A stretch of 64,000 nucleotides of DNA from an uncultured bacterium. GTDB lineage: Bacteria; Verrucomicrobiota; Lentisphaeria; Victivallales; UBA1829. The translations under genes were made by a program, and so were the position numbers. Each line of letters starts with the position of its first letter. Position 1 is the first letter of the stretch. Of this stretch, positions 5,334 through 62,778 are shown one piece after another. The notes under the pieces are model-generated. The model searched no databases, was not told where the DNA came from, and saw only the letters and a program-made list of their open reading frames with translations. The DNA lies in assembly GCA_949290385.1 (NCBI GenBank), contig CASERY010000030.1, forward strand, positions 4,300 to 68,299, in the 5' to 3' direction.

Positions 5334-6236
5334 TTATTTAGACTGTGTTGAAAAGGGATGTGGAGCAGGTGTCGTTTCGGAGGCTTGAGAGGGAACGGTT
5401 GCGAAAATTCTGCTTTTTTGGGGATTTTGCCTGAGTGCTGATGAGGGTCGTATAATTCTGTTTCCACAGTGTGGACACGATCCGCTGAGAATGATAAAAG
5501 GTACGCTTTTTCTGACATGGGAATATCTCACAGGAAATCCCGTGCAATGATCGTGTTGATACAGACTTTTCCCGCAGAAAGCGCATCGTGTAACGAGACC
5601 ATAATAAGCAGCCAGGCGTTTTTCCACTGTGCTTCTGCCTAAAACACCAGCCCCGGCCAGGAGCAGGGATATTCCCTGCCAAAGAAAAACTGAATGAAAA
5701 GAAAATCCGTACAGAAGGGAGGCAAAAGGCAGCATACATAAAAAAAGAAACCACCCGGAAAGGATTATTCTGGATTCTCTTTCTGCCTTTCGATATTGTA
5801 GATAACTTTTGGGTGAAATCAGGCTTTTCCAGATTTTTTCCTTTTGGGGACCGTCCGGACAGACAAGGTTTTTCCCATCTGTGGAAAGAACAGAAAATTC
5901 GGCGGGAAAGCAAGAGAAGGATTGGTGTCTGTCATAGCGGCCGTGCTGACTCTGTTTCGAGGTCAGCATTAAAGGACTGTATTCCTATTGGTTTCTATTA
6001 TGATAGCCATTATGACCGGAACCTATAGATTGCGAAAGATCTCCACCGCATTCCGGACATTTGGAAAAGGTCTGCAGAATTTCCAATGAATCTCCAAAAT
6101 AGCCGTGGCAGAGCGGACAGCATCTGCTTTTCCTGATCTTTGAGTGATGATAAACTGCTGCAGTCCACCAGATCATTGCAAGAATTTCCAATCCTGGAAG
6201 TGCTGCAAGCAGGATCCAGCTGTGCCAAGGGCTCAT
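5334..6236 (-). CDS. Hypothetical membrane protein with two TM + zinc-ribbon modules (contains in-frame TAG at 5985-5987)
   Basis: ORFs 5985..6236 and 5334..5969 are in the same frame, separated only by a TAG and 5 sense codons. Each half has hydrophobic segment(s) followed by paired CxxC motifs (CPLC...CPEC; CAFC...CPHC). ATG 6234-6236 overlaps the TGA of the extended recN frame. Final stop TAA. Confidence 0.5.
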
Positions 6237-8059
6237 TTCTGAAAGAGATCCTGTTGTTCCGCGTCTTTTCCGGGGAAAGCGGAAACCGCTGTTTTTTTCT
6301 AATGACGATGGCGGGCGTGTGTTTCCATCGTTGGTTTTTCTGTTTCAGAAATGGAAGAGATTCCGGAATCGGAATGCGGATGTTTCCGGCCGGAAGACAC
6401 CTCTTTATTGTCCTCCAACATAGCCCGTGCATGCTCGCGGGCAGCAGAACCGCCGCCAAGCATGCGGCAGAGTTCATCCAGTCGCTCTTCCGGGGACAGG
6501 GATAGAAGCGTGGAACGGGTATCCTGTTCACTGGAACTTTTCATTACCAGAAAGTGGCACTCTGCACAGCTGGCTACCATGGGGGAATGGGAGATGCAGA
6601 TAATTTGTTTATGACGGGAAAGTTTGCGCAGTTCCTGTCCCACTTTCCCGGCTGTCTCTCCTCCGATGTTTGCATCAATTTCGTCAAAAATCAGAGTCGG
6701 GATGCAATCGGCCTCCGCAAGAACCGTTTTGGCGGCCAGCATGACCCTTGAAATTTCTCCGGAGCTTGCCACATCTTTCAGCGGACGCAGGGGAACTCCC
6801 GGATTGGCGCTGAAGAGAATCTGAATTTTATCACAGCCTCCCGGGCCGTATTCGGCCTGAGAGAAGTCCACTTGGAATTCGGCCTGGCGGAATCCCAGTT
6901 TCCGGGTTTCTTCGCTGAGCAGGGAAATCAGTCGGCCTGCGGCTTCACGACGGGCGAGACTGATCTGGTCGGAGATCGACTGCAGTTGATGAAAAAGGGC
7001 ATTTTCCTGATCACGGAAAGTCCGACGTGTTTGTTCGGCATTTTCAAATGCGTCTATCCGGCCGCGAATCTCATCCGCGTATTCCAGGACATTCTCAAGG
7101 GAAGGGCCATAGCGGCGTTTCAGGGTCTGAAGAATGCGCATGCGTTCTTCCATCGCCTGGAATTCCGATTCATCGAGCTCCACAGAGGCCGCATGGTGAT
7201 TGAGACTCGAGGATAGATCGGAAACCGATTCAGAAATATTTTCGAGCATCTGAAGGAAGCCTTCGGCATGTTCGGGATCGATCCGTTCCAGATCCAGCAG
7301 GGAGCGGCGGATTTCTGCGATGCGGTCAAAAAGAGAATCTTCTCCTTCTGTCAGTGCACTGCAAAGTTTCATGGCAATTTCCAGGATTGTGCGGGAATGA
7401 CTGGCAAGTTCATGTTTTTGTTTCAAAGCATCGTCTTCTCCCACCTGAACATCTGCCCGCTCAATTTCCTCCAGATCTCTTCGAAAACCGGATATTTCCT
7501 ATTCGGACGGCATGGATTCCAGAAAATGGGCATGCTTTTCCCGTATTTCCTTCAGCTCATTCCAAACTTCAGCATTTTTCTGAAGAAGCTCTGATATGCC
7601 GGCAAAGCGGTCCAGAGCGTCAAGCTGCTCGGAAGATTTGAGCAGACTTTGATTTTCATTGGCTGCGTGGATGTCCACCAGAAGTTCCCCGAAAGAACGC
7701 AGAAGCTGGAGACTTACAGGTGTGGCATTGATAAAATTGCGTGTTGCACTGGGCGTGATGACTCTGCGGATGCAAAGAATATTCGGAGCATCTTCCAGAT
7801 CCAGGGCATTTTCCTTCAAAAGGGCAGCGGCTCTGGAATCGGTTCGGGACAGTTCAAACTCCGCAGAAATTTCACAGCGGTCCGCACCAATGCGGATTGC
7901 TGATTTATCTGCACGTTCTCCGAGGAGCAATCCCACTCCGCCCATGATAACGCTTTTTCCGGCACCGGTTTCTCCTGTGATGACATTGAAAGCGGGGCCA
8001 AACTGGATTTCCGCCTCTTCCACGAGGGCAAGATTTTTCAGTTTCATCCATTTAAGCAT
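6233..8059 (-). CDS. recN: DNA repair protein RecN (in-frame TAG at 7499-7501; second TAG at 6299-6301, frame closes at TGA 6233-6235)
   Basis: ORFs 7499..8068 (N-terminal Walker A, ITGETGAGKS) and 6299..7444 (coiled coil plus C-terminal ABC signature/Walker B, SGGEISRVMLA...LIFDEIDANIGG) share one frame. Together they have RecN length. Start placed at ATG 8057-8059 (MLKWMKLKNLALV). Under code 11 this is two fragments. Confidence 0.85.
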
Positions 8060-8151
8060 TTGACGCACCTGGCAGATCTGGGAGTTTTATCCGGCATTCC
8101 CGGACAGACTCCTGTTAATATTGACTGATTTTTTTAAATTGCAAATCTCAT

Positions 8152-9249
8152 GTGGTTGAATCTGTTAAAATCATGAATATTTTAGAAGAAGAGTTTGAAG
8201 AATTTTCGCCGGTTCCCCGAATGAGTCCGGGAAATTGGCAGGAATGTTTCCAGCAAATGAATAATGCCAAGAAATCGTTGCAGCAGTCAGATCCTTTGAA
8301 AGAAAATCCCTTCAGGGCCCGCTGGTGGGTTCCTGTGCCAGAAGAAAGAGAGGTTTCCTCTAACTGTTTTTCTGGAGAGACGCCTGGTAGTCCGGGTTCC
8401 CATGAGAAGATTCGGCAGCAGACTGTAGACTCGACGGAATATAAAACTCTGATTCGTTGTCTGCTGTGTCCGCGGCAGTGCCTGATCCCGGATGGAGAAA
8501 GAGGCGCCTGCCGGATGCGTATCCATGAAAACGGATGCCTTTATTCCATAGCTTATGGATTTCCTGCAGAATTGCGTCTGGTGGGAGCGTCGAGCATTCC
8601 ATTCGGAGTTGTCAGACATGACGGAAAGATGCTTTCTGCTGCCTGTTATGGCGGATTTGCTTAGAGTTCATGCTATCCATCTCCGGCGCTTGTGGAGGGT
8701 GATTACCATCCGAGGGCAGTCTACCGCTGGTACAGTGCGGATTCCCTGACAAATCTGTGTGTCCGCTACGGGGCAGACGGACTGGTTTTTTGCGGCGGCG
8801 AACCAGGTACCTGGCTGGAATATGTGCTGGATGTATTTAAGGCTGCTGAAGGGAAAAATCTTCTTCGGGGGACTGTTATTTCCGGCCTTCTGGAGGAGGC
8901 TCCGGCAGGAGAACTGTTTGAGCTGGCCGATAAAGTGACTATATGGATTGACAGTGCATACAATGAACAGGAAATGTCTGCTGCACTCAGAACCGCGGAA
9001 ATAGGAATGAGATTTCCCGGAAAGCTGGAAATTCTTTGGAATATGCCGGCGAAGGAAGGTCCCGACACAATGGCACAGAGTCTGGAATTTCTGCAAAAAC
9101 TTTCAGCGCTTTGTGAAACAAATGGTTGTTCCCGGGAGAAACAGCCTCTGTGGATCGGTGGAGGCGCATCGAGGGAAATACAGTTCAGTCTGAGAGAAAA
9201 AGCCGTCCGGGAAACGGAATTCAAGAACTGCGTAATCTGGACGGAATGA
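8152..9249 (+). CDS. Radical-SAM-activase-like protein with degenerate cluster motif (in-frame TAG at 8662-8664)
   Basis: ORFs 8152..8664 and 8692..9249 are in the same frame. IRCLLCPRQCLIPDGERGACRMRIHENGCLYSIAYG resembles the N-terminal Cys-rich region of PflA/AmmeMemoRadiSam-type radical SAM enzymes as I recall them. The canonical CxxxCxxC is missing where expected (AACYGGFA-TAG-SSCYPSP). The start may be ATG 8173. Stop TGA. Confidence 0.45.
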
Positions 9250-16955: not shown

Positions 16956-17342
16956 AACAGTTCACCCTATTGTTGAATGATGATTTTATGATGGAAATAT
17001 TTCCTATACTTCTCGGTTTGTTTTCCGGTTCGGTCTTGCCGGACTTTTTCAGAATGGCGGGTTCCAGAAATCCCTGTATCAACACATGGGCTGCAGGGGG
17101 GTATAGAGGATTCCGATATGGATTTAAATTCCTGCCGGGAACTTTGTACAGACTCCAGATGGAAGAGAATACTTGGATTAAACAGGAATGAAGTACTGCA
17201 CTGGTCCTGTTCAGCTCCAGAAAATTCCTGAGAATATACTGTCCGTCATAGATCCCGTAATCAAAACCGCATTTCTGAAAAAGTGCCGAATCCTTCTGCT
17301 TTCTGTTTTGTCGGTTGATCCGGTTTATTCAAGATGTGCAGA

Positions 17343-17383
17343 CTGGAATGCGGAATACCCGGATTAAAAAATCCGCATTCCAG
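17343..17383. repeat. Perfect 12-bp inverted repeat (ctggaatgcgga ... tccgcattccag) with a 17-nt spacer
   Basis: Arms at 17343-17354 and 17372-17383, read directly. It lies in the 520-bp spacer between the DegT and Gfo genes (both minus strand). The loop contains a nested cggatt/aatccg palindrome. Confidence 0.9.
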
Positions 17384-17476
17384 CCATCTTCAGACCCGTG
17401 CCTGTACCTCCTTTTTCAGAGGCGGACAGTCACGGACAGGCTTTTTCCTGATATAAGCCTGTCTTCAGAGAAAATC

Positions 17477-18760
17477 TTACTTCATATAGGCATTGGCAAC
17501 TTTATTGAAAGCGTCAATATAGGCCTGTATGTGTTCTTCGGTGTAAACCGGATGCGTAAAGAAACTGATGGTTCTGTCTGTCATCCAGTTGGCCTTCTTG
17601 CAATTGAACTTGGAATAGTCAATATCGCGAGCCTTGGGATCCTTGAACGGATAACGGGCTGTACCGAATCCGCGTTTTTCTGTGTAGGCGGCTTCCTTGT
17701 ACATTTCCGGCCAGAGTACAGAATAAACGGGGACTCCTTCAGCAGCCATGGCTGCAATGAACTGTTTGGTATCGATGCCGTCTTTGAGTTTGTCGGTATC
17801 GAGTACAAACGGAGCCCACCAGAAAGCATCCTGACGTTCCTCTGTATCCAGAGGAGCGATTTTGACCAGCGGATGATCTTTCAGAGCCTTGATGAGCATT
17901 TTGCCGTTGCGTTTACGGTTTGCCAGATTCCAGCTGTCGAAGCGTTTGAGTTCGCTCAGTCCAATGGCGGACTGCATTTCGGTCATACGGAAATTGAAAC
18001 CAACGCGTTTGTGAATGTAAAGCTGTTTGCCTTCCATTTCCAGAAGGTTGAGTTTTGCCTGGACATCATAACCGTGGTCACGGAAAGAACGGCATTCCCA
18101 TGCCAGATTATCGTCGTTGGTGACAACCATACCGCCTTCACCGCCGGTGGTGAAGTGCTTGCTCTGGCAGAAGCTGAAGCAGCCGACATCGCCGATGGTT
18201 CCGGCTTTTTTGCCTTTGTAGACACCGCCGAAGCACTGTGCACAGTCTTCAATGACTTTCAGATTGTGCTTGCGGGCAATTTCCATAATGGGATCCATAT
18301 CGGCAACAATACCGTACAGATGGACAACCACAATTGCTTTGGTGCGCTCATTGATCAGCGCTTCAATTTTGGTGGGATCCATGGTGTGGGAGTCGTCCAC
18401 ATCGCAGAACACGGGCAGTGCGCCTGCCTGCAGTGCGCAGAAGGAGGATGCAATGAAACTGTAAGATGTACAGATTACTTCATCACCCGGTCCAATATCC
18501 AGAGCTCCGAGAGCCACGTGCAGAGCTGCGGTTCCGTTTGTTACGCTGATGGCATTCTTGATGCCGAGCCATTTGGCCCATGCATCTTCAAATTCCATAC
18601 CGATTTTGCCGGTCCAGTAATTGACTTTGCCGGACTGGAGGACCCGCACAACGGACATGATGTCTTCATCAGAGAAGACGGGCCAGGAGGGGAAGGATCC
18701 TTCAAAGACTTTTTTGCCGCCATCGATGGCGAGCTTTTCACTGGTAACTGCCATTTTCAA
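17477..18760 (-). CDS. DegT/DnrJ/EryC1/StrS family PLP-dependent sugar aminotransferase
   Basis: 427-aa ORF. LAIDGGKKVF..., NGTAALHVAL and the FSFCQSKHFTTGEGGMV lysine block are typical of the family. Stop TAA. Confidence 0.88.
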   Translation of the reverse strand: MKMAVTSEKLAIDGGKKVFEGSFPSWPVFSDEDIMSVVRVLQSGKVNYWTGKIGMEFEDAWAKWLGIKNAISVTNGTAALHVALGALDIGPGDEVICTSYSFIASSFCALQAGALPVFCDVDDSHTMDPTKIEALINERTKAIVVVHLYGIVADMDPIMEIARKHNLKVIEDCAQCFGGVYKGKKAGTIGDVGCFSFCQSKHFTTGGEGGMVVTNDDNLAWECRSFRDHGYDVQAKLNLLEMEGKQLYIHKRVGFNFRMTEMQSAIGLSELKRFDSWNLANRKRNGKMLIKALKDHPLVKIAPLDTEERQDAFWWAPFVLDTDKLKDGIDTKQFIAAMAAEGVPVYSVLWPEMYKEAAYTEKRGFGTARYPFKDPKARDIDYSKFNCKKANWMTDRTISFFTHPVYTEEHIQAYIDAFNKVANAYMK

Positions 18761-19431
18761 AACTCCTTTTCAAAAGTTGGATGATTTTGCAGGTACATGT
18801 TAATTGCTGCATAGATTTTTCTTTTCATAATAAAGTTACCAGAATCTGAAGGAAACGCAAAAGAGATGGATTGTTTAAACGAACGGATTGATTGTAAAAT
18901 CTTACGATTTTTTAGATTCATATCTGATTTTTGAAGTTGTCTTTTCCCGGAGGAAAAATTTTTTATTGGTCCAGCTTCCTGCAGAGCCGCCGGGTTTTCA
19001 TTCCAGTTTCAGGCAGGAAAAGACATGATTCATAAATTGTAAAATTTTGATGAGTTTGAATTCAAATAAGAAAAGTTACAGTACGAAAAAATGGAAGGAA
19101 ATCGTTTTTCAGGATAATGTGGTCCAAAGAGGACGGAAGAGTGGGATGAAGCAGCAGAAGGCTGCTGAAACACATGACTGGAGGAAGACTCTCTGTTTTT
19201 GGGGCTGAACTGGACCGGAAACAGGAAGAAAGTTTTTCCTCAAGATTCAGATATTCGGTGTTTGTAACGGGAGGTATACCGTGGAGGGATAGGAAGGAGG
19301 AGGGCTTGTCGTATAAGAATAGCGGGATGTTTAAAAAAGAAGATCATGACTGCCGGCAGAGCCTGGCAGAAATGGAACAGACCGTGCAAGGACAGTCTGT
19401 TCCATTCTGAATTCAGACAGGAGTCTGTGTT

Positions 19432-21265: not shown

Positions 21266-22066
21266 ATGGAACTGCCTCAGGAACAGCCTGTAAATCTCTG
21301 GACGCACGAACCCCCTCTGGCTCATGGAAATGCTCCGGAAGATATTCCCACAATTACTGCCTATTATCCGGCAGAATGGAGAAAAAATAAAAAAGCCGTA
21401 GTTATTCTGCCTGGCGGAGCTTACTAGTGTCTGGCAGATCACGAAGGAGCCGGCTATGCCAGATGGCTGGCTCATCATGGATATTGTGCCTTTGTTGTAA
21501 AATACCGTCTTGGTTCAAATCACTATCATCATCCTGCTGAAATTTCGGATGCGGCCAGAGCTGTGCGGATTGTGCGCACTCATGCGAAGGAACTGGGAAT
21601 TGATCCGCATAAGATCGGAATCATGGGGTCTTCTGCAGGGGGGCATCTTGCAGCTTCCTGTGCGACTTTTCATGAGATGGGAATCCGGGAGGAAGGCGAG
21701 TCCATGGAGAAGAATCTGGGACGGCCGGATTTTACCATCCTGTGTTATCCGGTGATTTCTTCTGATGAGAAAATCGGGCATACCTACTCTTTTGACATGC
21801 TGCTGGGGCCTGATGCTGATCCTAAACTGAGAACATTGCTTTCCATGGAAAAGTCTGCGGACAAGGATACTCCGCCTGCTTTTATCTGGCATACCTGGGA
21901 GGATCTGGCAGTGCCGGTGGAAAACAGCCTTCTGTATGCTTTGAGACTTAGAGAATGCGGTGTGCGGTTTGATATTCATGTGTACGAAAAAGGCGGACAT
22001 GGCATGGGGCTTGGCGATGGTCATCCCTGGGGAGAAGAGTGCCTGCGTTTTCTGGACAGCATCTGA
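21266..22066 (+). CDS. Alpha/beta hydrolase (esterase) with in-frame TAG at 21425-21427
   Basis: ATG 21266 ... VVILPGGAY-TAG-CLADHEGAGYARWLAHHGYCAFVVKYRL ... GIMGSSAGGHLA (GxSxG nucleophile elbow). The track only lists the 3' part, 21563..22066, in the same frame. Stop TGA. Confidence 0.78.
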
Positions 22067-22434: not shown

Positions 22435-23490
22435 ATGGAACAGAAACAGTCTCAGAAAACCGATCGGTTTCAGCTGATGGCAGCCCCACTTCAAGGCTAT
22501 ACCCTGTCTGATTTCCGGAATGCCCATCGAAAAAGCTGTGGAGGGGCAGATGTCTATTTCACCCCGTTTCTGCGCTTGGAAAAAGGGCTTGTCCGGAAGA
22601 AGGAACTGGCGGATCTGCGCAGAGATTTGGAAGTGGAAAGCCGTGGTATTACTGTCCCCCAGCTGATGGTGAAAAGTCCGGAAGAACTGGCTGTTTTCGT
22701 GGAGACAATCCGGCAGGAAAATGTACTGCGGGAATCCTTTCATTTTCCTCCTTTCCAATGGATTGATTTAAACTTTGGCTGTCCGTTTCCGAAAATGACG
22801 GAACATGGATATGGCGCCGGAATTCTGGCAGAAGAGGATTGTGTGAAAAAACTGCTCTGCTCACTGAAAAAATATCCGGACTTTCATTTCTCTGTGAAAA
22901 TGCGTGCAGGAATGCATTGTCGCGATGACTGGAAGAAATTGGTGGGATTTCTCATTGATGCAGATCTGGAGCTGGTTGTTTTTCATGGAAGAACAGGCGA
23001 TCAGGGATATGACGGCGAGGCAGACTGGACTCTCTGTCTGGATTTTGCTGAATGTTATGGCGGGCGTGTCGTGTATAATGGCGACATCCGGACGCTGGAA
23101 CAGGTTCGTTTTCTAAGGGAAAAGATTCCACATTTGTGCGGAATCATGGCAGGTCGCGGTCTTCTGGCCAATCCTCTGCTGTTTCTGGAAATCCGGGAAA
23201 ACGGAAAAAGATACCTGCAGGAAAGAATTCAGCATTTGGAGCAGTATACTACATATTTCCTGGAGGAAGTTTCCCGCAGAACAGATCAGGTTCTTCCGGA
23301 GTAGAAGCGATTATGGGATTTTTTTCTGCCGGAAGCGGATAAGCGTCTGCGTAAAAAAATCCAGAAATCAACAGATCTGGATGAATATCAGTTCTGGGTG
23401 AAGGAACTTTTTTCTCAGATGACGGAATCCGGAAAAGAGGATAGCAGTCCTTCCGGGAATGAGGATGAGCCGGACCTGGAAGATTGTTAA
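22435..23490 (+). CDS. tRNA-dihydrouridine synthase family protein (in-frame TAG at 23302-23304)
   Basis: ORF 22435..23304 has Dus TIM-barrel motifs (MAAPLQGYT, DLNFGCP, VKMR, HGRT). The same frame continues after the TAG as KRLWDFFLPEADKRLRKKIQKSTDLDEYQFWV... to TAA 23488-23490. This resembles the conserved C-terminal tail of this Dus subfamily as I recall it. Confidence 0.82.
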
Positions 23491-23640: not shown

Positions 23641-25026
23641 TTAAAAAATTTCCCGGCAGTCGGCCAGAATGGAAAGACCTTCTCTTAATTTTGCAAAACT
23701 GCCGGCGGAAGAGAGAGAGACTCGGAGAAAAGGGTGTCTGGGATTTTTCCGGACAGCAAAATGGTCTGAATGCTGAACTAAAATCCCCTTTTCGGCAAGA
23801 GTTTGCTCAATGCGTGCACCGCTTTCCCGGGAGGCGATAGGCAGACTCCGGAAAAAGGCATAAGGATGAGCACTGCTGTCATTCATCTCCGGGAAAATTT
23901 GATTGAACAGCTGATTGGCTTTTAAGGCAAGAGATTTCTTTTTTTCGAGAATGGCGGATGCTTTTCCGCTGAGAATGAGTTCCGTGATAATTTCCGCATC
24001 CAGAGAGGAACTTTTAATGTTCATACTGTAAAGTCCGTGAAGAATGCGTTTGCGGAAGGCTTCCGGAAATGCGGCAAAGGCTATGCGTATGCCGGTGCAG
24101 AGATTTTTCGTGGAACCGCAAATAAAAAATGTCTGGTCCGGAAGCATGGAGAAAAGGGAGCGGACGGGACCTTTCCCGGATCCGAGAGTGCCCATGAGGT
24201 CATCTTCAAGGAGGATGAGACGGTGTTTCTGTATGATTTGTGCAAGGGCTTTTTTCCTGTTTTCCGACATGCTGAGAGCTGTTGGATTGGAGCAGGAAGG
24301 CATCAGAAAGATGCCGCTGATTTTTTCACGGGAACATTGTTTGTCCAATGCTTCGGGATCCATGCCTTGCGCATCTCCGGGAATGGGGATGATCTGGAGG
24401 TGAAACAGTTTTGCAGCCTCGATAAAATTGGCATAGGTGAATTCGTCTGCTGCGATGCGGTCCCCCAGACGGAAAAGGGAGACCAGTGCTACAGTCAAAG
24501 CGTTTTGCGCTCCTGAAAAAATGGCGGTGTGATTGCAGTCTGTACGGACATCCATCTGTTCCATCCAGCGGACGCCTGCCGCACGTTGATGCAGATGGCC
24601 TTCCGCATCTGAATAGGCACAGAGCTTTTTCAGATATTCTTTGCTCAGAACAGACTACGCAGTTTCAGGAATGAAATCATTGCATTCATCAAATACATGA
24701 ACAATGCCAAGCTGAATTTTTCCGGATGGATTCAGAAAATCATTTCCGTGGCCGGTATATGGCGCCGTAAAGGTGCCTTTCCCTGCAATGCCGTAGATTA
24801 AATGTTTCTCCCGACAGAGATCATACGCTCGTGTGACGGTTGTAAAATGAATGTCCAGAAAGTCGGCCAGCTCCCGCTGGGGTGGAAGACGTGTGCCGGG
24901 AGCCAGATGGCCGTTTTGAATATCTTCTTCCAGCAGGTTTGCTAGAGAGAGGTAGCAGGGTCTGGATAATTTGGAACGATCGGGTCTCCAGCTCATTTTA
25001 TAATTTTCAAAGGAATTGACCGGCAT
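23641..25026 (-). CDS. pdxR: MocR/GabR-type regulator (GntR wHTH + aminotransferase-like domain), PdxR-like; in-frame TAG at 24655-24657
   Basis: ORFs 24655..25026 (wHTH, LPPQRELADFLDIHFTTVTRAYDLC) and 23641..24564 (fold-type I PLP domain) share one frame with no other stop between them. The gene is divergent from pdxST, the arrangement known for PdxR. Stop TAA. Confidence 0.8.
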
Positions 25027-29470: not shown

Positions 29471-29659
29471 CAGGGACATTTGTCCCGACAGTACGGCGTT
29501 TTGCCTGAAAATGGGAAGCGGGGAGAGGAGGGAAGTTTTCACGTTATATTGCCTGCAGAGAAAGATAGATTGCTGCAGAGTGTTGACAGACCGCAGAAAA
29601 ATGTTATATTTATTGAATTATAATTATTGTATTTTTAAAAGTAAATAAGGGAGGACCAG

Positions 29660-30271
29660 ATGTCTGATATCAAAACGATATTTGCCGATGAAGTCCGAAG
29701 ATTGTCCCGGAAAGAAATTAAAGTAGCAACATCATCTTTTGCCGGCCAGATTTAGACTTTGAAAAAAGAAATAGCTGAGCTTTCCCGTGAACTGAAAAAA
29801 TTGAAAAAAGAGGAAGAAGACCTGAAAAAAGTCTCAGAAATGTTCTGTTCAGCGGGTTTTCCCCATGGCAATGGCTCTGAAGAAAGTCATTCAGAATCTC
29901 CTGCACATCCTAAGCAGTTCCGTGTCAGTGGAGCCCGGCTTGCAAAAATTCGGAAGAAACTGGGATTGACCCAGGCAGAATTCGCTGCAATTCTGAATGT
30001 TACAACGCTGACCGTCTCAAATTGGGAACGAGGTAAGAATAAAATCCGCCAATGCCAGAAAAAAGCCATTGCAGAGTTGAGCCGGATGAGCCGCAACGAC
30101 TTGAATGCATTCCTGGCTGAAAAGTTGCCGGCTCACAAAATAGATAAGCCTCATGGCATTCGCCTGCATCATCGAAAGGAAAAGGATTCCAGCATTCAGG
30201 CCTTTCCGGAAGAGGAAATTGAACCGGATACGGAGAATGAAATTCATGAGGTTTCGGTATCTGCAGTATAA
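29660..30271 (+). CDS. XRE-family HTH protein with N-terminal coiled coil (in-frame TAG at 29753-29755)
   Basis: A strong SD (AAGGGAGG) lies upstream of ATG 29660. The sequence reads MSDIKTIFADEVRRLSRKEIKVATSSFAGQI-TAG-TLKKEIAELSRELKKL..., then the HTH LGLTQAEFAAILNVTTLTVSNWERG. The track lists only 29759..30271, in the same frame. Stop TAA. Confidence 0.75.
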
Positions 30272-40164: not shown

Positions 40165-41085
40165 ATGGCCGGCATAGTTGCAGAAAAAATGATTGAGATG
40201 TTTGTCATCCTGATTGCAGGAATGATCATCTATAAATGCAAACTGGCAAATGCACAGGCAAGCAAAACACTGTCCAATCTGCTTCTGATGGTGGTTTCCC
40301 CGCTGCTGATTCTTGAGTCCTATCAAATGCCATTTGACTGGGGGCTGTTTTACGGCCTGCTGTGGACTTTTTAGATTTCACTGATCATGTTTGGAATCAT
40401 GATTGTTCTTTCGGAAATTTTTTTCCACGGGACGGGAAAAAGAATTCCGGTGGAAAAACTCTCCTCCGTTTATTCCAATTGCGGATTCATCGGATTCCCT
40501 TTGATTGACGGTATCTTCGGGGCAGAGGGAATTTTCTATATGACTGCCTATACAACGGTTTTCAATCTCCTTTTCTGGACGCACGGAGTCTGGGCAATGG
40601 GCAGTGGGGGAAATGTGAAAAGTACTTTGAAGAGTTTGTTTACTCCGGCTATTGTGGCTGTATTCCTGGGGCTTTTTCTGTTTGTAGCGCAGATTCGTCT
40701 GCCTGAAACGCTTGCTGAGCCGCTGGATATGATTGCGGATATGAATACGCCTCTGGCGATGATTGTGGCCGGAATCAACCTGGCTCAGGCCGACTTCCTG
40801 AAGAGTCTGAAGAAGATCCGAATTTACTGTGTCTGTCTTCTGAGACTTGTTTTTTTCCCGCTTGTCGGAATCCTGATTCTCGCGCAGCTGCCGCTGGATT
40901 TCAAGGTGCTTTTTACGGTTTTTATCGGAATGGCTTGTCCATCGGGGGCCATGGTGATTATGTTTGCGGAACGCTATGGCAAGGATGCGCTGTATGCTTC
41001 TGAAATTTTTACCTTGACAACCATTCTGTGTGCGGGAACGATTCCCGTGCTTTCCATTCTGGCTGTAAAGATGTTTGTCCATTAA
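40165..41085 (+). CDS. AEC (auxin efflux carrier) family transporter (in-frame TAG at 40372-40374)
   Basis: ORFs 40165..40374 and 40387..41085 are in the same frame. Together they give a roughly 300-aa polytopic protein with AEC-like N- and C-terminal halves. Stop TAA. Confidence 0.78.
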
Positions 41086-42155: not shown

Positions 42156-43175
42156 ATGAAAACGTATTTTATGAAAAGATTTACTGAAAATTTCAGAAGA
42201 GTTTTTCCCCGGGGATTCGTTCTGCTGATTGTGCTTCTGCTGTTCGCTTCCGGATGCTCAGACGTCTATTATATGCTGAAGACCTCGGCGGACAGTCGGT
42301 GGGCTGAGGCCAGGGCTTTGCGTATCCAGGCTCAGAAGGAAACGAAGGAGGCGCTGGAGAAAGGAATATCCAAAGGTGAATTCAAAGGGGAAAAATGGAT
42401 TCTTCCTTCCGGGGAGTGCGATGAAATCTGGATAGGTCGCGTAGAGTCATGCGGATTTATGAATGATTCTGGAAACTGCTTTGTGACGCTTTATCATGCG
42501 GTGTGCCTTTATTCCTTTGAAAGAGATGAACCAGGCAAGGAATCTTTTCTGACAATGGAAGGACATATTCTTCAGTTTCCTCATCAGCGTTTCCCGGAAG
42601 AGGGTCAATGGGTGCTTGCCGCAGTAACTCGCTCAAAAGTTCCGGAAGATGATACCGTCTGCATGGAAAATGCCGTGGATGCCCAATTTGACAGCAGCGG
42701 CAATTTAATTTTATTGTCCCGCTGTACACTGCCGAGAAAATTTGTTCAGGCTCTTCTGGATATTGATCCGAAAACGAAGATTCACTTTGCAAAAGACGAT
42801 GCGCGCGGAACTGGATCTCTGCTGGACGGCCGTGTATCGTTTGATTTCCGGGAACTTTTCTTTGCCGATATCGCTGCAGAACCGGTAACCAGATAGACCG
42901 GAGAGGACGGCCGGGAATTTGTAGAATATGCAGGACGTCTTGCCGACAGCGGCCGGATTATTCCTTGCGGCCCGGATTTCTCAAGAGGCTTGACAGACGA
43001 GGAATTTTTTGCCAATCCGTATATCGATGCGGGTTATTTTTTTATACGATTCCGGTTTCCGGCGGAACAGGAGTCCGTATTTTCACAATTTCTTGGGCCG
43101 TATCCTCCGCCGGCAACAAAAGATCAGGGAGAATCAGCCGATGTTGAACATTCAACGGGTCCATATGGACCGTAA
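42156..43175 (+). CDS. Hypothetical lipoprotein (TAG at 42894-42896 read through to TAA 43173-43175)
   Basis: Signal peptide with lipobox (LLLFASGC). The code-11 ORF is 42156..42896. The same frame continues as TGEDGREFVEYAGRLADSGRIIPCGPDFSRGLTDEEFFANPYIDAGYFFIRFRFPAEQ..., which is the same frame as track ORF 42990..43175. The extension is plausible but unverified. Confidence 0.5.
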
Positions 43176-48615: not shown

Positions 48616-50481
48616 ATGGAGTCACACATGATGAAGTCGATTTGGAAACAAATGGTTCTCCTGGCGGGATTGTTCTGTTGTTCGGAACTCGCCGCAGACG
48701 ATGTATATTTCGACGCGACGCCGCAGCAGAGTCCAGTGCTTGCAGATGGAATCGGTTCATCTCCGGAAGAACGGGGAAGAATCGATTCTTTGTTTTTATT
48801 CGCAAAGGCGCTTTCTGAAAGTCCCAATGGTCTTCTGACGCCTGAAGCAGCGGATATACAATGTCAGGCATTCTGTGAAATTCTGGCTGCTGATCCGGGT
48901 AATGCAGCCGTGCTTGGACGCTTGTTGTCTCTTTACCAGGAATATCCGGAAACGGTAAAGGTATATGAAAAGCGTATCCGGGAAATTCAGGCTGCCCATC
49001 CGGCAGAACCGGGCCTTGCGTATTTCGTTGCCATTTTCCTGGATTATTTTGAAGGTCGTACCGAAGAGAGTCTGAAGCTGCTGAAAGACTGTATCATTCA
49101 GGCAGAAAGGGCGGAGCCTTTTGCTTCTCTTTCTCCGGAGAGCCCTGATTTCTGGCTCAGACTGGATCTGTTGACTCAGTTGTTTCGCATGGAAGAATCT
49201 GTGAATCCGGAGGCGGAGCCTGTTTTAGTACGGGAAATTCTTTATTCCAGTCCTTATCTGGGACAGAATGTTTCAGCAATGGTGCTGTAGCTGTCTCTTG
49301 CAACAAAAGACATTATAATTTATCCTCCATATTTTGCCACAGGAACTCCGGGAGAAACTGCACTGGAGAATTCGCCTCTGGCTGCGATGGAGTCCTTTTC
49401 AGACTTGGAGGATCTGGCATTGAAGCTTTTGAAGGAAATGCCAGATTTTACATACGAAGGGGATCCCCGCAATCTTATAGAGATTCTGGGTGTTTTTTCT
49501 GTGCGTCCGAAACTGCTGGAAGACTGTCTTCAGGATTTAAAGGAATCTTCCCAGAAAAAGGATTCCTCTGAATACAGTCTGGCACTTGCCGCAGTCTATA
49601 GCTTGCACGGGAATCATGAAAAGGGCGCTGCAGAATATGCTGAGCTTGCAGCCAAAGGCAAAAAAAGACTGTCCGCACAGGAATATGTGCAATGGGCTTC
49701 ATGCCTTTTAAACCTGGAGGATATGACGGGTGCGGCAAAGGTTCTGGAGAATGGGCTGAAGAAATATCCCGAAGAACAGGGTCTGATTCGGAGATTGCTT
49801 GTCTGTTATGCCAGGCTTGGAAATAAGAAAGGCGTTCTGGAGATGCGGAAGCGTCTGCTGGAACAGTATGAGAAACAGTTTTATTTAATGTATATGGCGG
49901 CCTTGTCCGGATATTACCAGCAGGGATATGCCGTGGGACAGAACATTGAGAGAAGTCTGCCCGAAGAAGAACTTTTCCAGCCGGGTATGCTGCCGTTCTG
50001 GGTAACATACCTGTCCTGCATGGGGGAGTCTGCGGATATCGCAGAGTTTCATGAGAAGGCCGAAAAGTGTCTGAAGCATTTTCCCAATGACCCGAATCTC
50101 CTTAATACGGTTGGCTATGTTTATGCGGATCGCAATGTGTACTTGGACCTGGCGGAGAAATACTTGCAGAGAGCTCGCAGAATGCTCCCGGATGCAAGTG
50201 AGATAGCCGACAGTCTGGCCTGGCTTTATTTCCGCCAGGGAAAACTGGACCTGGCAAAAAAGGAGATGTTTGAAAGTCTGGTTCTTGCCGGATCAGAGCC
50301 GGCTCCGGAAATTCTGGATCACGCAGGAGATATTTTTCTAAGTTCCGGCGATCTTCGTGCAGCGTTGAAGTACTGGTAGACAGCATATGAGTTTTCTCCG
50401 GACGGATCTGAAATAAAACAGAAAATCGAAGAAAAAATTCAATCTCATTCCAGTTCAGCCGGAAAACCAGGAGAGATTTGA
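48616..50481 (+). CDS. Secreted TPR-repeat protein (in-frame TAGs at 49288-49290 and 50377-50379)
   Basis: ORFs 48526..49290 and 49387..50379 are in the same frame with no other stop between them. After the second TAG the frame continues as TAYEFSPDGSEIKQKIEEKIQ... to TGA 50479-50481, completing a TPR helix-B pattern. The signal peptide is MMKSIWKQMVLLAGLFCC. Confidence 0.7.
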
Positions 50482-56276: not shown

Positions 56277-56855
56277 TTATTTGGCGCTCTGTTGGGAGGA
56301 AGGCGTGTTATCTAGCGTAATATTATGATCCTCTTGTCTGTTTTCTCCGGGACTGCATTGTGCCCGGAGGATTAGAAAATCTCTCCAGAGAGAAGGATCT
56401 TTTTTCAGAAGTTTAGAAAGTTTTGACGGACTTGTCTGAAGTAGTTCCGCAGATTGATGAAGATCTGCAGAACAGGAAAAAAGAACGTCGAAAAAGTCCG
56501 CAATCCAGCATGGATAACGCGTATTCCCGGCAGAGGGGACAGGCTCCAGATGAAAGAGTCGTTTTTCCAGTGGATACTGATCCAAGGGGATACGGATCTG
56601 CCGTGCGATTTCTCTTCGGAGTTTCTGACAGGCAATTTTTCTGTTGGCAAGCTGGCTTCTGGATTCCATGCAGCGTACAGAAATTCCGCTGGAAAGATGA
56701 AGTGCACGAACGGAGGATGAGGTTTTGTTGATTTTCTGTCCGCCATGGCCGGTCGCTTTCTGAAAGTCCAGATGAATCATTCTGGAAAAATCTTCTTCTG
56801 ATGCAGAGAGGATTCTGCTTCTTTCTTCATAGGTCATATCGGCGACAGTCTTCAT
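56277..56855 (-). CDS. GGQ-domain protein (class-I release-factor domain-3-like, RF-H/ArfB-like) with unrelated C-terminal domain
   Basis: KATGHGGQKINKTSSSVRALHLSSGISVRCMESRSQLANRKIA matches the peptidyl-tRNA hydrolase domain of RF1/RF2/PrfH. No codon-recognition domain is visible. The C-terminal roughly 100 aa has an HTH-like segment (SAELLQTSPSKLSKLLKK). Stop TAA. Confidence 0.7.
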   Translation of the reverse strand: MKTVADMTYEERSRILSASEEDFSRMIHLDFQKATGHGGQKINKTSSSVRALHLSSGISVRCMESRSQLANRKIACQKLRREIARQIRIPLDQYPLEKRLFHLEPVPSAGNTRYPCWIADFFDVLFSCSADLHQSAELLQTSPSKLSKLLKKDPSLWRDFLILRAQCSPGENRQEDHNITLDNTPSSQQSAK

Positions 56856-56858
56856 GGT

Positions 56859-61278: not shown

Positions 61279-62778
61279 ATGGTGCCGGATGGGGCCGACT
61301 CGAAATGTTTTTTCAGAAAAATCGGCAGAAATGCAGGGGCCGCATGGTGGATCCCGACTCTTTATTTTGCAGAAGGGGCACCTGCTTCTATTTTTACAGA
61401 AGTCTCAGTTCCGATTTTCATGTCCTTCCAAATGAGTGAAGGGATGATTGCTCTCTGGTCCAATCTGCTGGGACTTGTGCCGATTCTGTTGATTAAAATA
61501 CTATGGGCGCCTTTCGTGGATGCTGTCAGCACAAAGCGCTTCTGGATTATTATGACACAGATTTCCATGGCCGTTGTCTTTTTCTTTTCGGCGGCGGCAT
61601 GCTGTGCGGGCAGTCTTGCTCCGCTTCTTCTGATCAGTACATTTGCCCTGGGGGCCTTTTTTTCCGCAACCCATGATGTGGCGGCAGACGGATATTACAT
61701 TATTGCTCTTTCTGAACGGGAACAGGCGCTGTATTCCGGTTTGCGCAGCGTGTTCTTCCGGGTGGCCATGATCGCGGCAAACGGAGGACTGATTTTGTTC
61801 GCCGGGTTCCTGTCGGATGCGGTCGCAGGTGAGATGAACGATGTTCGTGCGGGATTCGTCTGGATGATCAGTTTGCTGATTCCGGGTATCCTGATGGGCC
61901 TGCTGGCACTTTATCACTGGATGGTTTTGCCGGAGAGAGAAGAAAAACAGAAAAGCAGGATTTCAGGCAGATGCGGGAATGGAGAATGGAGTTCCCGCAA
62001 CGGCTGCGGGGAAAAAAATTCCGTTTCAAAAAAGCTTCAAGAGGAAAGTAGCGAAAAACGAATTGGCATCCGGCAGATTTGGCAGGATTTCAGACAGTCA
62101 GGCGTCCTTTTTTTCAAAAAGCGACAGGTGGGGACAGTCTTGCTGTTCCTGTTGTTTTTCCGTTTATAGGAATCCCAGCTGGGAGCCATGTCCAAACTCT
62201 TTCTCCTGGATTCGCAGAACGGAATGGGCCTGACTCTGAAAAGCTATGGATTCCTGGCTGGGACTGTTTCCCCGGCAATGCTTCTGGCCGGAGGGGTCCT
62301 TGCCGGCTGGGTTGTCACCCGAACAGGCCTGGATAGAATGCTGATGATGATGGCTTGTGCCATCAATCTGCCTGATCTGGTTTATCTGTGGATGGCTTTT
62401 TGCCGGGAAATGCCGTTATGGGGCGTGGGAATTTGCACAGGCATTGAAGCATTCGGATACGGATTTGGATTTACCGGTTATATGCTGGTCATGGTGTGGT
62501 TCGCTGCAGGAAGTGGAAAATGCAAGACCAGTCACTATGCCCTGATGACCGTGTTTATGATTGCAGGTTATCGAATTCCGGCCATGTTTTCCGGAAAAAT
62601 ATTTGAAGGGTTCAAAGCTCTGCTGGATCATGCTTTTATAAAAACAGATCTTTGTGCACTGCCTTATCAGGTTTTCTTTGTCTGGGTGATGATCTGTACA
62701 ATTCCGGGGTTTATAGTCTCCAGACAAATGCTAAAGCATATGACTCCGCATTATGGAATGAAGGATAAGCTGGATTAA
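61279..62778 (+). CDS. ampG: AmpG-family muropeptide MFS transporter (in-frame TAG at 62167-62169)
   Basis: GGAGG lies upstream of ATG 61279. WWIPTLYFAEGAP...ILWAPFVDAVSTKRFW and, after the TAG, ...LFLLDSQNGMGLT...GIEAFGYGFGFTGYML...KTSHYALMT match AmpG blocks. ORFs 61279..62169 and 62188..62778 are in the same frame. Stop TAA. Confidence 0.82.

Follow-up and report, generated by a model that had tools for sequence, protein, structure and literature searches.

The recN gene of an uncultured gut Victivallales bacterium (Lentisphaerota) contains two in-frame TAG codons, which raises the question of whether it is a broken gene or an intact gene in an organism that translates UAG. We consider it very likely that UAG has changed genome-wide from a stop to a sense codon and that recN is intact. 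The locus lies on a bacterial chromosome (rpoA, ribosomal protein genes, argG, gatB, pnp and gap are present) with a GC content of ~47% and metabolic genes that look ordinary, and the host sequence is neither AT-rich nor obviously reduced. Below, the window is the whole 64,000-nucleotide stretch of DNA that was analyzed.

The recN reading frame and its first TAG

On the minus strand, recN starts at ATG 8059 (MLKWMKLKNL...) and comprises 608 codons and a TGA if TAG is sense. Its main features are:

6233..8059, minus strand: full recN reading frame (translation; TIGR00634 match; Pfam SMC_N)
6413..8059, minus strand: conserved RecN core, residues 1-549 (RecN model and alignment with ~35 orthologues)
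7499..7501, minus strand: first TAG (TAG1), codon 187, within the RecN coiled coil (orthologue column; kept in assemblies L081 and L082)
6299..6301, minus strand: second TAG (TAG2), codon 587 (translation; kept in L081 and L082)

The Walker A motif (GETGAGKS, 7952-7975, residues 29-36) is upstream of TAG1. Downstream are the signature-like motif (SSGEISR, 6746-6766, residues 432-438), Walker B (LIFDEIDA, 6671-6694, residues 456-463) and the ISHSP motif (6581-6595), which share one frame with it. The Walker A and signature/Walker B halves would be in one polypeptide only if TAG 187 is decoded. The first-pass annotation had described this arrangement, with both halves in one frame and TAG2 followed by 21 codons, TGA 6233-6235 and an ATGA overlap; its coordinates are correct, and the motifs were located on both sides of TAG1. 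It had also proposed aligning the joined protein, with X at the TAGs, against RecN profiles. The NCBIfam recN equivalog TIGR00634 matched that protein in a single stretch across TAG1 at 444.5 bits, above the cutoff of 407.85, with residues 1-549 corresponding to model positions 1-562 of 563, and Pfam SMC_N matched residues 13-506.

The TAG1 column has a sense codon in every orthologue examined (~40 Victivallales), most often Glu (GAG/GAA; 32 of 41), the rest being Asp, Arg, Ser, Gln, Ile and Ala. The stop-free run after TAG1 is 399 codons, which is more than chance given a median of 30 after the terminal TAA and TGA codons of the window, and all RecN motifs are intact over these ~400 codons. 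The model match, the orthologue column and the retention of TAG1 across assemblies support the claim that read-through of the first TAG restores RecN, which is predicted to be a single full-length protein. The 189-aa fragment named in the first-pass annotation does exist as an ORF from GTG 8068, but with ATG 8059 as the start the match to the RecN model begins at position 1. The outcome for recN is an ordinary one, an intact gene.

TAG codons in other genes and other assemblies

At least 13 genes in the window have an in-frame TAG. Outside the window, homology also bridges an in-frame TAG in rpoA, obg and a GH1 gene just beyond its ends, and in the essential rpoA and obg the TAG comes early (codons 55 and 53, respectively). 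In addition to recN and the gene 3' of it, the following sites were found in the window:

8662..8664, plus strand: TAG in a degenerate radical-SAM-like gene (8125-9249); bridged in orthologue alignments, with G (4) or A (2) in the column, and kept in L081 and L082
20302..20304, minus strand: TAG near the 3' end of an FtsQ-like gene (POTRA_1 domain); 25 open codons after, sense use putative
21425..21427, plus strand: TAG in a BD-FAE esterase, in the motif PGGAY-X-CLADHEG; Pfam BD-FAE, residues 33-223, spans it
23302..23304, plus strand: TAG in a tRNA-dihydrouridine synthase (Dus) gene; an alignment of residues 16-326 to PDB 1vhn crosses it at residue 290
24655..24657, minus strand: TAG in the interdomain linker of a MocR-type regulator; its GntR and aminotransferase domains are in one frame, 337 open codons after
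29753..29755, plus strand: TAG in an unannotated ORF (29645-30271); 171 open codons after
40372..40374, plus strand: TAG in an AEC/Mem_trans transporter gene; Pfam Mem_trans in two stretches, 236 open codons after, flagged by the coding model
42894..42896, plus strand: TAG in the ORF 42156-43175; coding on both sides by the coding model, 92 open codons after
49288..49290, plus strand: first TAG in a TPR protein gene; 362 open codons after
50377..50379, plus strand: second TAG in the TPR protein gene, directly after the TPR_2 match; 33 open codons after
62167..62169, plus strand: TAG in an AmpG-like MFS gene, in the motif FRL-X-ESQL; homologue P0368 matches residues 20-497 in one stretch

Residues 7-255 of the BD-FAE esterase also align to PDB 6a6o. 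With 60-codon flanks and recalibrated thresholds (an initial stricter set gave zero sites), the coding model predicted in-frame continuation of coding past 6 of 9 TAG codons, 1 of 21 TAA codons and 0 of 13 TGA codons. The median open frame was 198 codons after TAG vs 30 after terminal TAA or TGA (p = 3.5e-5), a comparison that includes some bias because the 14 TAG sites were chosen inside TAA/TGA-delimited frames. For the FtsQ TAG and the second TPR TAG, as for TAG2 of recN, the open-frame length is not separable from that after a true stop. Counts of ORFs under alternative stop sets, and of same-frame ORF pairs split by one stop, were swamped by shadow frames and were dropped. No TAA or TGA was bridged by homology as TAG is, no frameshifts were found, and no gene in the window was demonstrated to end at TAG, which accounts for ~9% of stops in relatives. 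As judged from homology, these comparisons demonstrate that many conserved and essential genes are interrupted by TAG where their homologues encode an amino acid, and that no such interruption is by TAA or TGA.

Every covered TAG was kept in independent same-species ENA assemblies, which have 99.5-99.7% nucleotide identity and their own SNPs. A sister species (~78-81% nucleotide identity) shares the TAG at rpoA-55 and at obg-53 and carries further TAGs of its own, in at least eight assemblies. Among the next relatives, genes are intact under code 11, the standard code; the Obg TAG column is a true CAG in relatives L106 and L107, and in L107, 2 of 19 genes terminate with TAG. The TAGs are genuine and inherited, and the trait is common to two species and absent from their next relatives. 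A metagenome scan with a single Dus protein gave no matches, and a scan with the BD-FAE alignment succeeded, at loci too little syntenic to yield columns for neighboring genes.

Comparison of 22 TAG sites identified no common motif around them, only a purine preference at +4, and signal-dependent (programmed) read-through was rejected on this basis. The read-through described for recN is supported at TAG1, but not as an event specific to that gene, since TAG appears to be sense genome-wide. An alternative is that the TAGs are nonsense mutations in a decaying genome or assembly or sequencing errors, or that they reflect signal-dependent read-through or RNA editing particular to recN. Nonsense mutations tend to start from GAG and CAG, the codons that outgroups have at the RecN and Obg columns, and the Codetta paper cautions about pseudogene nonsense mutations. 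However, the interruptions here are by TAG only, with no TGA, TAA or frameshift; essential rpoA and obg are hit at the same columns in two species; the codons 3' of TAG1 keep every RecN motif; and independent assemblies agree at sites with no local motif in common. We regard this group of explanations as exceedingly improbable.

The recN tail and the junction with the downstream gene

The 3' part of recN and the gene that follows it comprise:

6302..6412, minus strand: lineage-specific RecN C-terminal tail, residues 550-586, past the ends of most relatives; codon score +0.075 per codon in frame
6236..6298, minus strand: 21-codon extension after TAG2, KKTAVSAFPGKDAEQQDLFQK; codon score +0.113 per codon in frame
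6233..6236, minus strand: ATGA, formed by TGA 6233-6235 of the extended recN over ATG 6234-6236 of the next gene (sequence)
5334..6236, minus strand: gene 3' of recN, 300 codons if TAG 5985-5987 is sense; 216 open codons after its TAG

The RecN proteins of relatives end at 529-565 aa, a few of them extending up to ~10 residues into the tail, and the TIGR00634 match stops at residue 549, before it. Neither the orthologue alignment nor the RecN model gave a counterpart of the tail holding TAG2 in any relative, and the sense codons sought in orthologues are accordingly found at TAG1 (in all examined) but not at TAG2. In four of four strain variants, the C-terminal recN fragment ends at the TAG2 codon. 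The first-pass annotation took a clean stop in related genomes at the equivalent of position 6299 as grounds against read-through. The recN genes of relatives do end cleanly, but they do so 20-40 residues earlier and under the standard code, and for these reasons the comparison does not apply as worded.

The extension after TAG2 scores -0.11 and -0.07 per codon in the other two sense frames, and 21-codon windows average 0.172 (sd 0.110) in the true frame and -0.156 (sd 0.127) in the +1 frame. No homologue of the extension was found, and its translation is putative; by length alone, 21 open codons are within chance and not separable from a true stop. No other pair of long real genes in the window is joined by an ATGA like that at 6233-6236, which itself counts as a junction only if codon 587 is read as sense. 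Such 4-nucleotide stop/start overlaps are common in relatives. By chance, an in-frame ATGA is expected in an estimated ~5% of cases (about 1 in 20), from 1/3 for the frame, ~0.27 for an A after ATG and ~0.56 for no TAA or TGA in 21 codons. If TAG2 is decoded, the ATGA would be a plausible termination-reinitiation junction, and the translational coupling named in the first-pass annotation is putative. No terminator was found on the recN strand near TAG2, and a hairpin at 6278-6290 was rejected as a recN terminator, being on the opposite strand and having no T-run on the recN strand.

The arrangement at 6299 is thus present as described, and we infer that TAG2 is decoded and read through to the ATGA mainly because UAG appears to be recoded genome-wide, the independent support being weak to modest. 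The size of the downstream zinc-ribbon gene, as first annotated, does not stand: its own TAG and the open codons after it extend the product to 300 aa. This product would be built of two modules, both of which contain hydrophobic segment(s) and CxxC...CxxC; it matched no Pfam family, and no homologue of the gene was found in the recN loci of relatives.

The short open frames after TAG2, the FtsQ TAG and the second TPR TAG (only 21-33 codons each) are in the range of true stops, as would be expected of an ambiguous code with an efficient amber-suppressor tRNA and a working RF1. Codon 587 would then often terminate, the main RecN would be 586 aa with a 608-aa minor form, and the ATGA would be incidental, which its ~5% chance allows. 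Archaeal code-34 lineages are also reported to keep a release factor, termed RF1 there (bioRxiv 10.1101/2024.09.30.615893). Nevertheless, the early TAGs of rpoA (55) and obg (53), conserved in two species, imply that efficient decoding is needed; the 21 codons after TAG2 score coding-like in the recN frame; and no window gene was demonstrated to end at TAG. We consider an ambiguous code unlikely. Under the preferred reading, full reassignment of UAG, a putative tRNA with anticodon CUA would read codon 187 and place both RecN halves in one polypeptide. If RF1 no longer terminates at UAG, codon 587 would be decoded too, and translation would halt only at UGA 6233-6235 to give a 608-aa RecN whose stop overlaps the start of the next gene.

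The proposed residue at UAG and comparison with known codes

ARAGORN and Rfam searches of ~92 kb of the species (the window and both flanks) identified no tRNA of any kind, hence no tRNA-CUA, and no other RNA genes. No prfA (RF1) was present in the region available, nor was it expected there. The sole RF-like gene, at 56277-56858, encodes a GGQ-domain PrfH/ArfB-like protein, and relatives carry such genes too.

Homologues have mostly small residues (Ala, Gly, Ser, Pro) rather than Gln at the TAG columns, which argues against phage code 15. Four of seven columns are nearly all small (A/S/T/G; G/A/P/S; G/A; and G/A/S with some W). The MFS column is G74, A44, P17, S10 and D1 in 146 homologues, and the BD-FAE column is G22, A12, W8 and S6, with others, in 55. 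Ala is the best single residue across the columns, with a summed log-odds of only +0.17; no one standard amino acid suits all of them, Obg pointing to Gln/Leu and RecN to Glu/Arg. At rpoA-55 and rpoA-139, the outgroup codons have no base in common with TAG at any position. From these columns the residue inserted at UAG is probably small and most likely Ala or Ser, with the column frequencies favoring Ala and the shortest mutational paths favoring Ser. AlaRS and SerRS ignore the anticodon, and capture of UAG by Ala or Ser would be mechanistically easy for that reason.

Decoding of TAG as Gln, the phage code 15 used by at least one public gene-calling pipeline for rpoA of the sister species, finds its best case in Obg. 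The ~20 closest standard-code Obg relatives have Gln, and both for which DNA was read have CAG, one transition from TAG; Gln suppressors of the supE type are classical. Against this, Gln is absent from all 118 sequences at both rpoA columns and from all 146 at the MFS column, and ~1 of 59 has it at the BD-FAE column, compared to 21 of 118 at the Obg column. Its likelihood is roughly 1000-fold below that of Ala. The closest relative, P0124, has a 'Q' at rpoA column 55, which was rejected as evidence for Gln, as the DNA has TAG, not CAG, and the 'Q' is an artifact of a table-15 gene caller. We consider Gln highly improbable. Code 15 is otherwise similar in its codon, its occurrence in gut metagenomes (crAss-like, Lak and other gut phages) and the presence of TAG in many genes, and table-15 gene callers translate the genes of the sister species in this way. 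The known cases, however, are phages, whereas here a bacterial chromosome has TAG columns that are not Gln-like.

Accepted natural stop reassignments in bacteria so far all concern UGA, namely code 4, in which Mycoplasmatota, some endosymbionts and Eggerthellaceae read UGA as Trp, and code 25, in which Gracilibacteria and Absconditabacteria read it as Gly, and the bacterial code changes in 2021, 2024 and 2026 sources, including the Codetta paper, are of UGA only. As in those lineages, one stop appears as sense genome-wide in conserved genes of a bacterial clade and not in its sister groups, and the expected signature would be a new tRNA and loss of the matching release factor. The codon and factor differ, being UGA and RF2 there and UAG and RF1 here, and the host here, at ~47% GC, is not AT-rich or obviously reduced. 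In our literature search for a bacterial UAG reassignment, the only cases were from phages, archaea, eukaryotes and engineered strains.

Among the engineered cases, RF1 is dispensable once UAG ends no genes, and classical suppressors are tRNAs with the anticodon changed to CUA. Amber suppressors (supD Ser, supE Gln, supF Tyr) and RF1-less recoded E. coli resemble what is proposed here in both respects; they are laboratory or engineered strains, whereas this trait is natural and fixed in two species. UAG encodes Ala or Leu in the mitochondria of green algae (Sphaeropleales). There too UAG went to an amino acid with a synthetase that does not depend on the anticodon, although in an organelle genome with a handful of genes rather than in a free-living bacterium. 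Work on green-algal mitochondrial codes is cited in the Codetta paper.

The closest cellular parallel in which TAG is sense genome-wide, including in essential genes, is code 34, in which all TAG codons of some archaea encode pyrrolysine, and that study likewise judged split-gene read-through by homology on both sides of the TAG (bioRxiv 10.1101/2024.09.30.615893). The boldest version of our reading, a non-canonical residue at UAG and thus a bacterial counterpart of code 34, is conceivable, though we rate it distinctly unlikely; it is a rival on residue identity, not on read-through. It would account for the lack of a standard residue that suits all columns, for the two TAG columns conserved across ~20% nucleotide divergence, as expected for a codon without synonyms, and for the rpoA-55 and rpoA-139 outgroup codons unlike TAG at every position. 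However, the four small columns are a poor setting for a bulky lysine derivative. Code 34 is archaeal, tied to Pyl machinery and methylamine metabolism, and stated as not observed in bacteria (bioRxiv 10.1101/2024.09.30.615893). Here, no Pyl genes (pylT, pylS, pylBCD) were found in the window or seen in the ~92 kb of the species, and no methylamine methyltransferases were found among the scanned proteins.

We conclude that this Victivallales clade, with at least two gut species, probably has the first natural bacterial code in which UAG is sense, with UAG termination lost and a small residue (Ala or Ser) inserted by an anticodon-mutated tRNA. Standard pipelines split about a quarter of the genes of this organism, and others apply the phage table (Gln), apparently wrongly. 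If true, this would add to the known bacterial codes and give recoded strains without RF1 a counterpart in nature. It would bear on phage-host code compatibility, with TAG-recoded phages in the same habitat, and the organism may be a source of a natural, efficient amber-decoding tRNA/synthetase.

The recN reading frame and its orthologues

Re-reading of the window sequence bore out the coordinates and sequences that the first-pass annotation had given for the recN TAGs, the TGA and the ATGA overlap:

8059 (ATG) to 6233-6235 (TGA), minus strand: recN frame, beginning MLKWMKLKNLALV
7499-7501, minus strand: in-frame TAG at codon 187 (TAG 187)
6299-6301, minus strand: in-frame TAG at codon 587 (TAG 587), followed by 21 codons to the TGA
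6236-6233, minus strand: ATGA, formed where the recN-frame TGA runs into the ATG that opens the following ORF on this strand

Walker A (GETGAGKS) lies 5' of TAG 187; 3' of it, in the same frame, come the signature-like motif, Walker B and ISHSP. When the TAGs are translated as X, the joined protein reaches 444.5 bits on the NCBIfam recN equivalog model TIGR00634, above its cutoff of 407.85, and one unbroken alignment spanning TAG 187 pairs residues 1-549 with model positions 1-562 of 563; Pfam SMC_N matches residues 13-506. Scanning GTDB at one genome per species recovered ~40 Victivallales/Lentisphaeria recN loci, at best 66% identical, in addition to Akkermansia loci. In all of them recN is uninterrupted, with 529-565 codons and a TGA or TAA stop (TAG once). 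The TAG 187 column holds Glu (GAG or GAA) in 32 of 41 orthologues, and Asp, Arg, Ser, Gln, Ile or Ala in the rest. The model match across TAG 187 and the sense codons in that column uphold the proposal that the first TAG is decoded. We conclude that recN is predicted to encode an intact RecN and is ordinary as a gene.

Public data contain the C-terminal RecN fragment (381 aa under the standard code) in four nearly identical versions, clustered together and drawn from several assemblies; all four stop at the same codon, directly before TAG 587. Two ENA contigs from different samples (99.5-99.7% nucleotide identity to the window, each with its own SNPs) both retain TAG 7499, TAG 6299, TAG 5985, TAG 8662 and TGA 6233. 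The TAGs are not errors.

TAG codons in other genes and in related lineages

When only TAA and TGA are read as stops, many window genes contain in-frame TAGs. The TAG is bridged by direct homology in a BD-FAE esterase (Pfam domain at residues 33-223, PDB 6a6o at residues 7-255, 55 homologues across), in Dus (PDB 1vhn aligned to residues 16-326), in an AmpG-like MFS protein (homologue covering residues 20-497 in a single stretch) and in a radical-SAM-like gene, and the GntR and aminotransferase domains of a MocR-type regulator share one frame. Three genes beyond the window's right end, read from further assemblies of this species, are interrupted by TAG only, and public gene calls cut each of them into two proteins:

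L097 9767-10792: rpoA, TAG at codon 55, within the motif LLSSLEG-X-AISAVRIDG
L097 16372-17406: obg, TAG at codon 53
L110 5330-6634: GH1 glycosidase, one in-frame TAG

With 60-codon flanks, same-frame coding continues after 6 of 9 TAG codons, 1 of 21 TAA and 0 of 13 TGA; the lone TAA case, and one TGA case that shows up when the flanks are 40 codons, resemble neighboring genes that lie in one frame. After in-frame TAGs the frame stays open for a median of 198 codons, versus 30 after terminal TAA/TGA (Mann-Whitney p = 3.5e-5), a result somewhat favored by the selection of TAG sites as lying inside open frames. No shared sequence motif was found around 22 TAG sites.

Several other features were observed in this species. 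The radical-SAM-like gene at 8125-9249 (plus strand) shares only ~30% identity with its orthologues and retains none of the three cysteines of their CNLGCxFC cluster motif. Its match to AmmeMemoRadiSam is limited to a short N-terminal stretch (37 bits versus a cutoff of 220), and the gene may encode a degenerate paralogue without catalytic activity. A 502-codon open frame at 17279-18784 (plus strand), with odd composition in translation and no obvious similarity, may be the shadow of an opposite-strand gene. Gene calls right of the window give a single 668-aa fusion of phosphoglycerate kinase with triose-phosphate isomerase (L083 7869-9875). A stretch of ~2 kb (L110 3191-5016; L097 19053-20792) contains just short called ORFs of 38-129 aa, with no Pfam hits, tRNA or Rfam match.

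The closest database RpoA (P0124, 93% identical) has Q at the TAG column. A genuine Gln was considered and rejected: eight independent assemblies all read TAG at this codon in the corresponding DNA, with another TAG at codon 139, and the Q is the product of a gene caller with a TAG = Gln table. P0124 is the public full-length RpoA of a sister species (L089-L096, L166), and both of these TAG codons appear in it as Q; at least one pipeline applies phage table 15 to this species, and Gln at those positions is probably wrong.

The sister species is ~78-81% identical at the nucleotide level, has two TAGs in a neighboring MFS gene, and shares the TAG at the Obg column with the window species. Its TAG density is the higher of the two, at 5 in ~1,400 codons of the sequence sampled. 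In the next relatives (RpoA 87%, Obg 74-76%) the genes are intact under the standard code, and the Obg column is a true CAG in the two checked, L106 and L107. In L107, 2 of 19 genes end in TAG, as do ~9% of long ORFs in 42 more distant Victivallales/Lentisphaeria loci. Since the sister species shares the TAGs and the next relatives use the standard code, the trait looks confined to a small clade.

The second recN TAG and the downstream gene

The RecN model and most orthologues end around residue 549-565, placing TAG 587 inside a low-complexity, lineage-specific tail with no homologues. By open-frame length alone it is indistinguishable from a true stop. The 21 codons that follow score +0.113 per codon in the recN frame (true-frame mean 0.172, sd 0.110; +1-frame mean -0.156, sd 0.127), and -0.11 and -0.07 in the other two sense frames. 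No terminator was found on the recN strand after TAG 587. A GC-rich hairpin (AGCGG-AAA-CCGCT, 6278-6290) starts 9 nt past TAG 587 with its T-run on the opposite strand; it resembles a plus-strand terminator, yet no plus-strand gene stops there. An in-frame ATGA is estimated to arise by chance in ~5% of cases, and 4-base stop/start overlaps are common in relatives (e.g., 4 of ~17 same-strand junctions in L107). Genome-wide recoding, with weak local support, makes it probable that TAG 587 is decoded. The ATGA overlap described in the first-pass annotation is present; the decoding and translational coupling proposed with it are plausible, though unproven.

The downstream gene had been taken for an 83-aa zinc-ribbon ORF, a reading that does not hold:

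5334-6236, minus strand: gene downstream of recN, with TAG at 5985-5987

Beyond this TAG are 216 open in-frame codons, which enter a 211-aa ORF that public pipelines call separately and would yield a 300-aa protein. This protein falls into two modules, both of which contain hydrophobic segment(s) and CxxC...CxxC. Neither a Pfam match nor a homologue at relatives' recN loci was found for it.

The residue at TAG and known genetic codes

Seven readable columns bear on the residue inserted:

rpoA-55: A91, S23, T3, G1
rpoA-139 (TAG in the sister species only; Pro in the window species): other relatives P105, then A, S, N
MFS: G74, A44, P17, S10, D1
BD-FAE: G22, A12, W8, S6 and others; closest relatives Ala (GCG) or Ser (TCC)
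Radical-SAM-like: G4, A2
Obg: L97, Q21
RecN: Glu in Victivallales, Arg in Akkermansia

Applied to all seven columns, a BLOSUM-smoothed likelihood assigns ~0.87 to Ala, 0.10 to Gly and 0.03 to Ser and places Gln roughly 1000-fold below Ala, in a run that took G4/C2 for the radical-SAM-like column (the corrected G4/A2 could only favor Ala more); the summed log-odds for Ala are only +0.17. The columns suggest a small residue, not Gln, and name no one amino acid. At the rpoA columns the outgroup codons (GCT; CCT/CCC) match TAG at none of their three positions, and the shortest single-step, mostly neutral path runs through Ser (TCT to TCG to TAG), so mutational parsimony would favor Ser; column frequencies would favor Ala. 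Capture by either is mechanistically simple, as neither AlaRS nor SerRS relies on the anticodon, and supD is the classical Ser amber suppressor. The residue may also be non-canonical.

No tRNA or other Rfam family was detected in ~92 kb of the window species, and no pyl genes or class-I release factors in the window. UAG decoding in this lineage would work as in known bacterial UGA reassignments and as in laboratory amber suppression in RF1-free strains. According to the Codetta survey, all known bacterial stop-codon changes involve UGA. Reassignment of UAG in bacteria is not discussed in a paper from 2026 on UGA-to-Trp in Actinomycetota, nor is a bacterial case for TAG reported by a k-mer screen of bacterial and archaeal assemblies from the same year. 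Archaeal code 34 (TAG as pyrrolysine) was not observed in bacteria (2024 preprint, bioRxiv 10.1101/2024.09.30.615893), the code-15 literature found concerns phages only, and no source was found that connects a code change with Victivallales or Lentisphaerota. For a natural bacterial lineage, a code with UAG as sense appears unreported.

One window gene touches on termination:

56277-56858, minus strand: GGQ (RF-1) domain-only protein, 192 aa, weakly similar to PrfH and ArfB

Standard-code relatives also have such genes (two in L107). Such a PrfH/ArfB-like protein is noteworthy where termination is altered. The interpretation in the first-pass annotation is borne out in part: it holds for TAG 187 and was too narrow in scope, as many other genes carry in-frame TAGs; TAG decoding is not specific to recN, and what makes the case interesting is the organism's genetic code.
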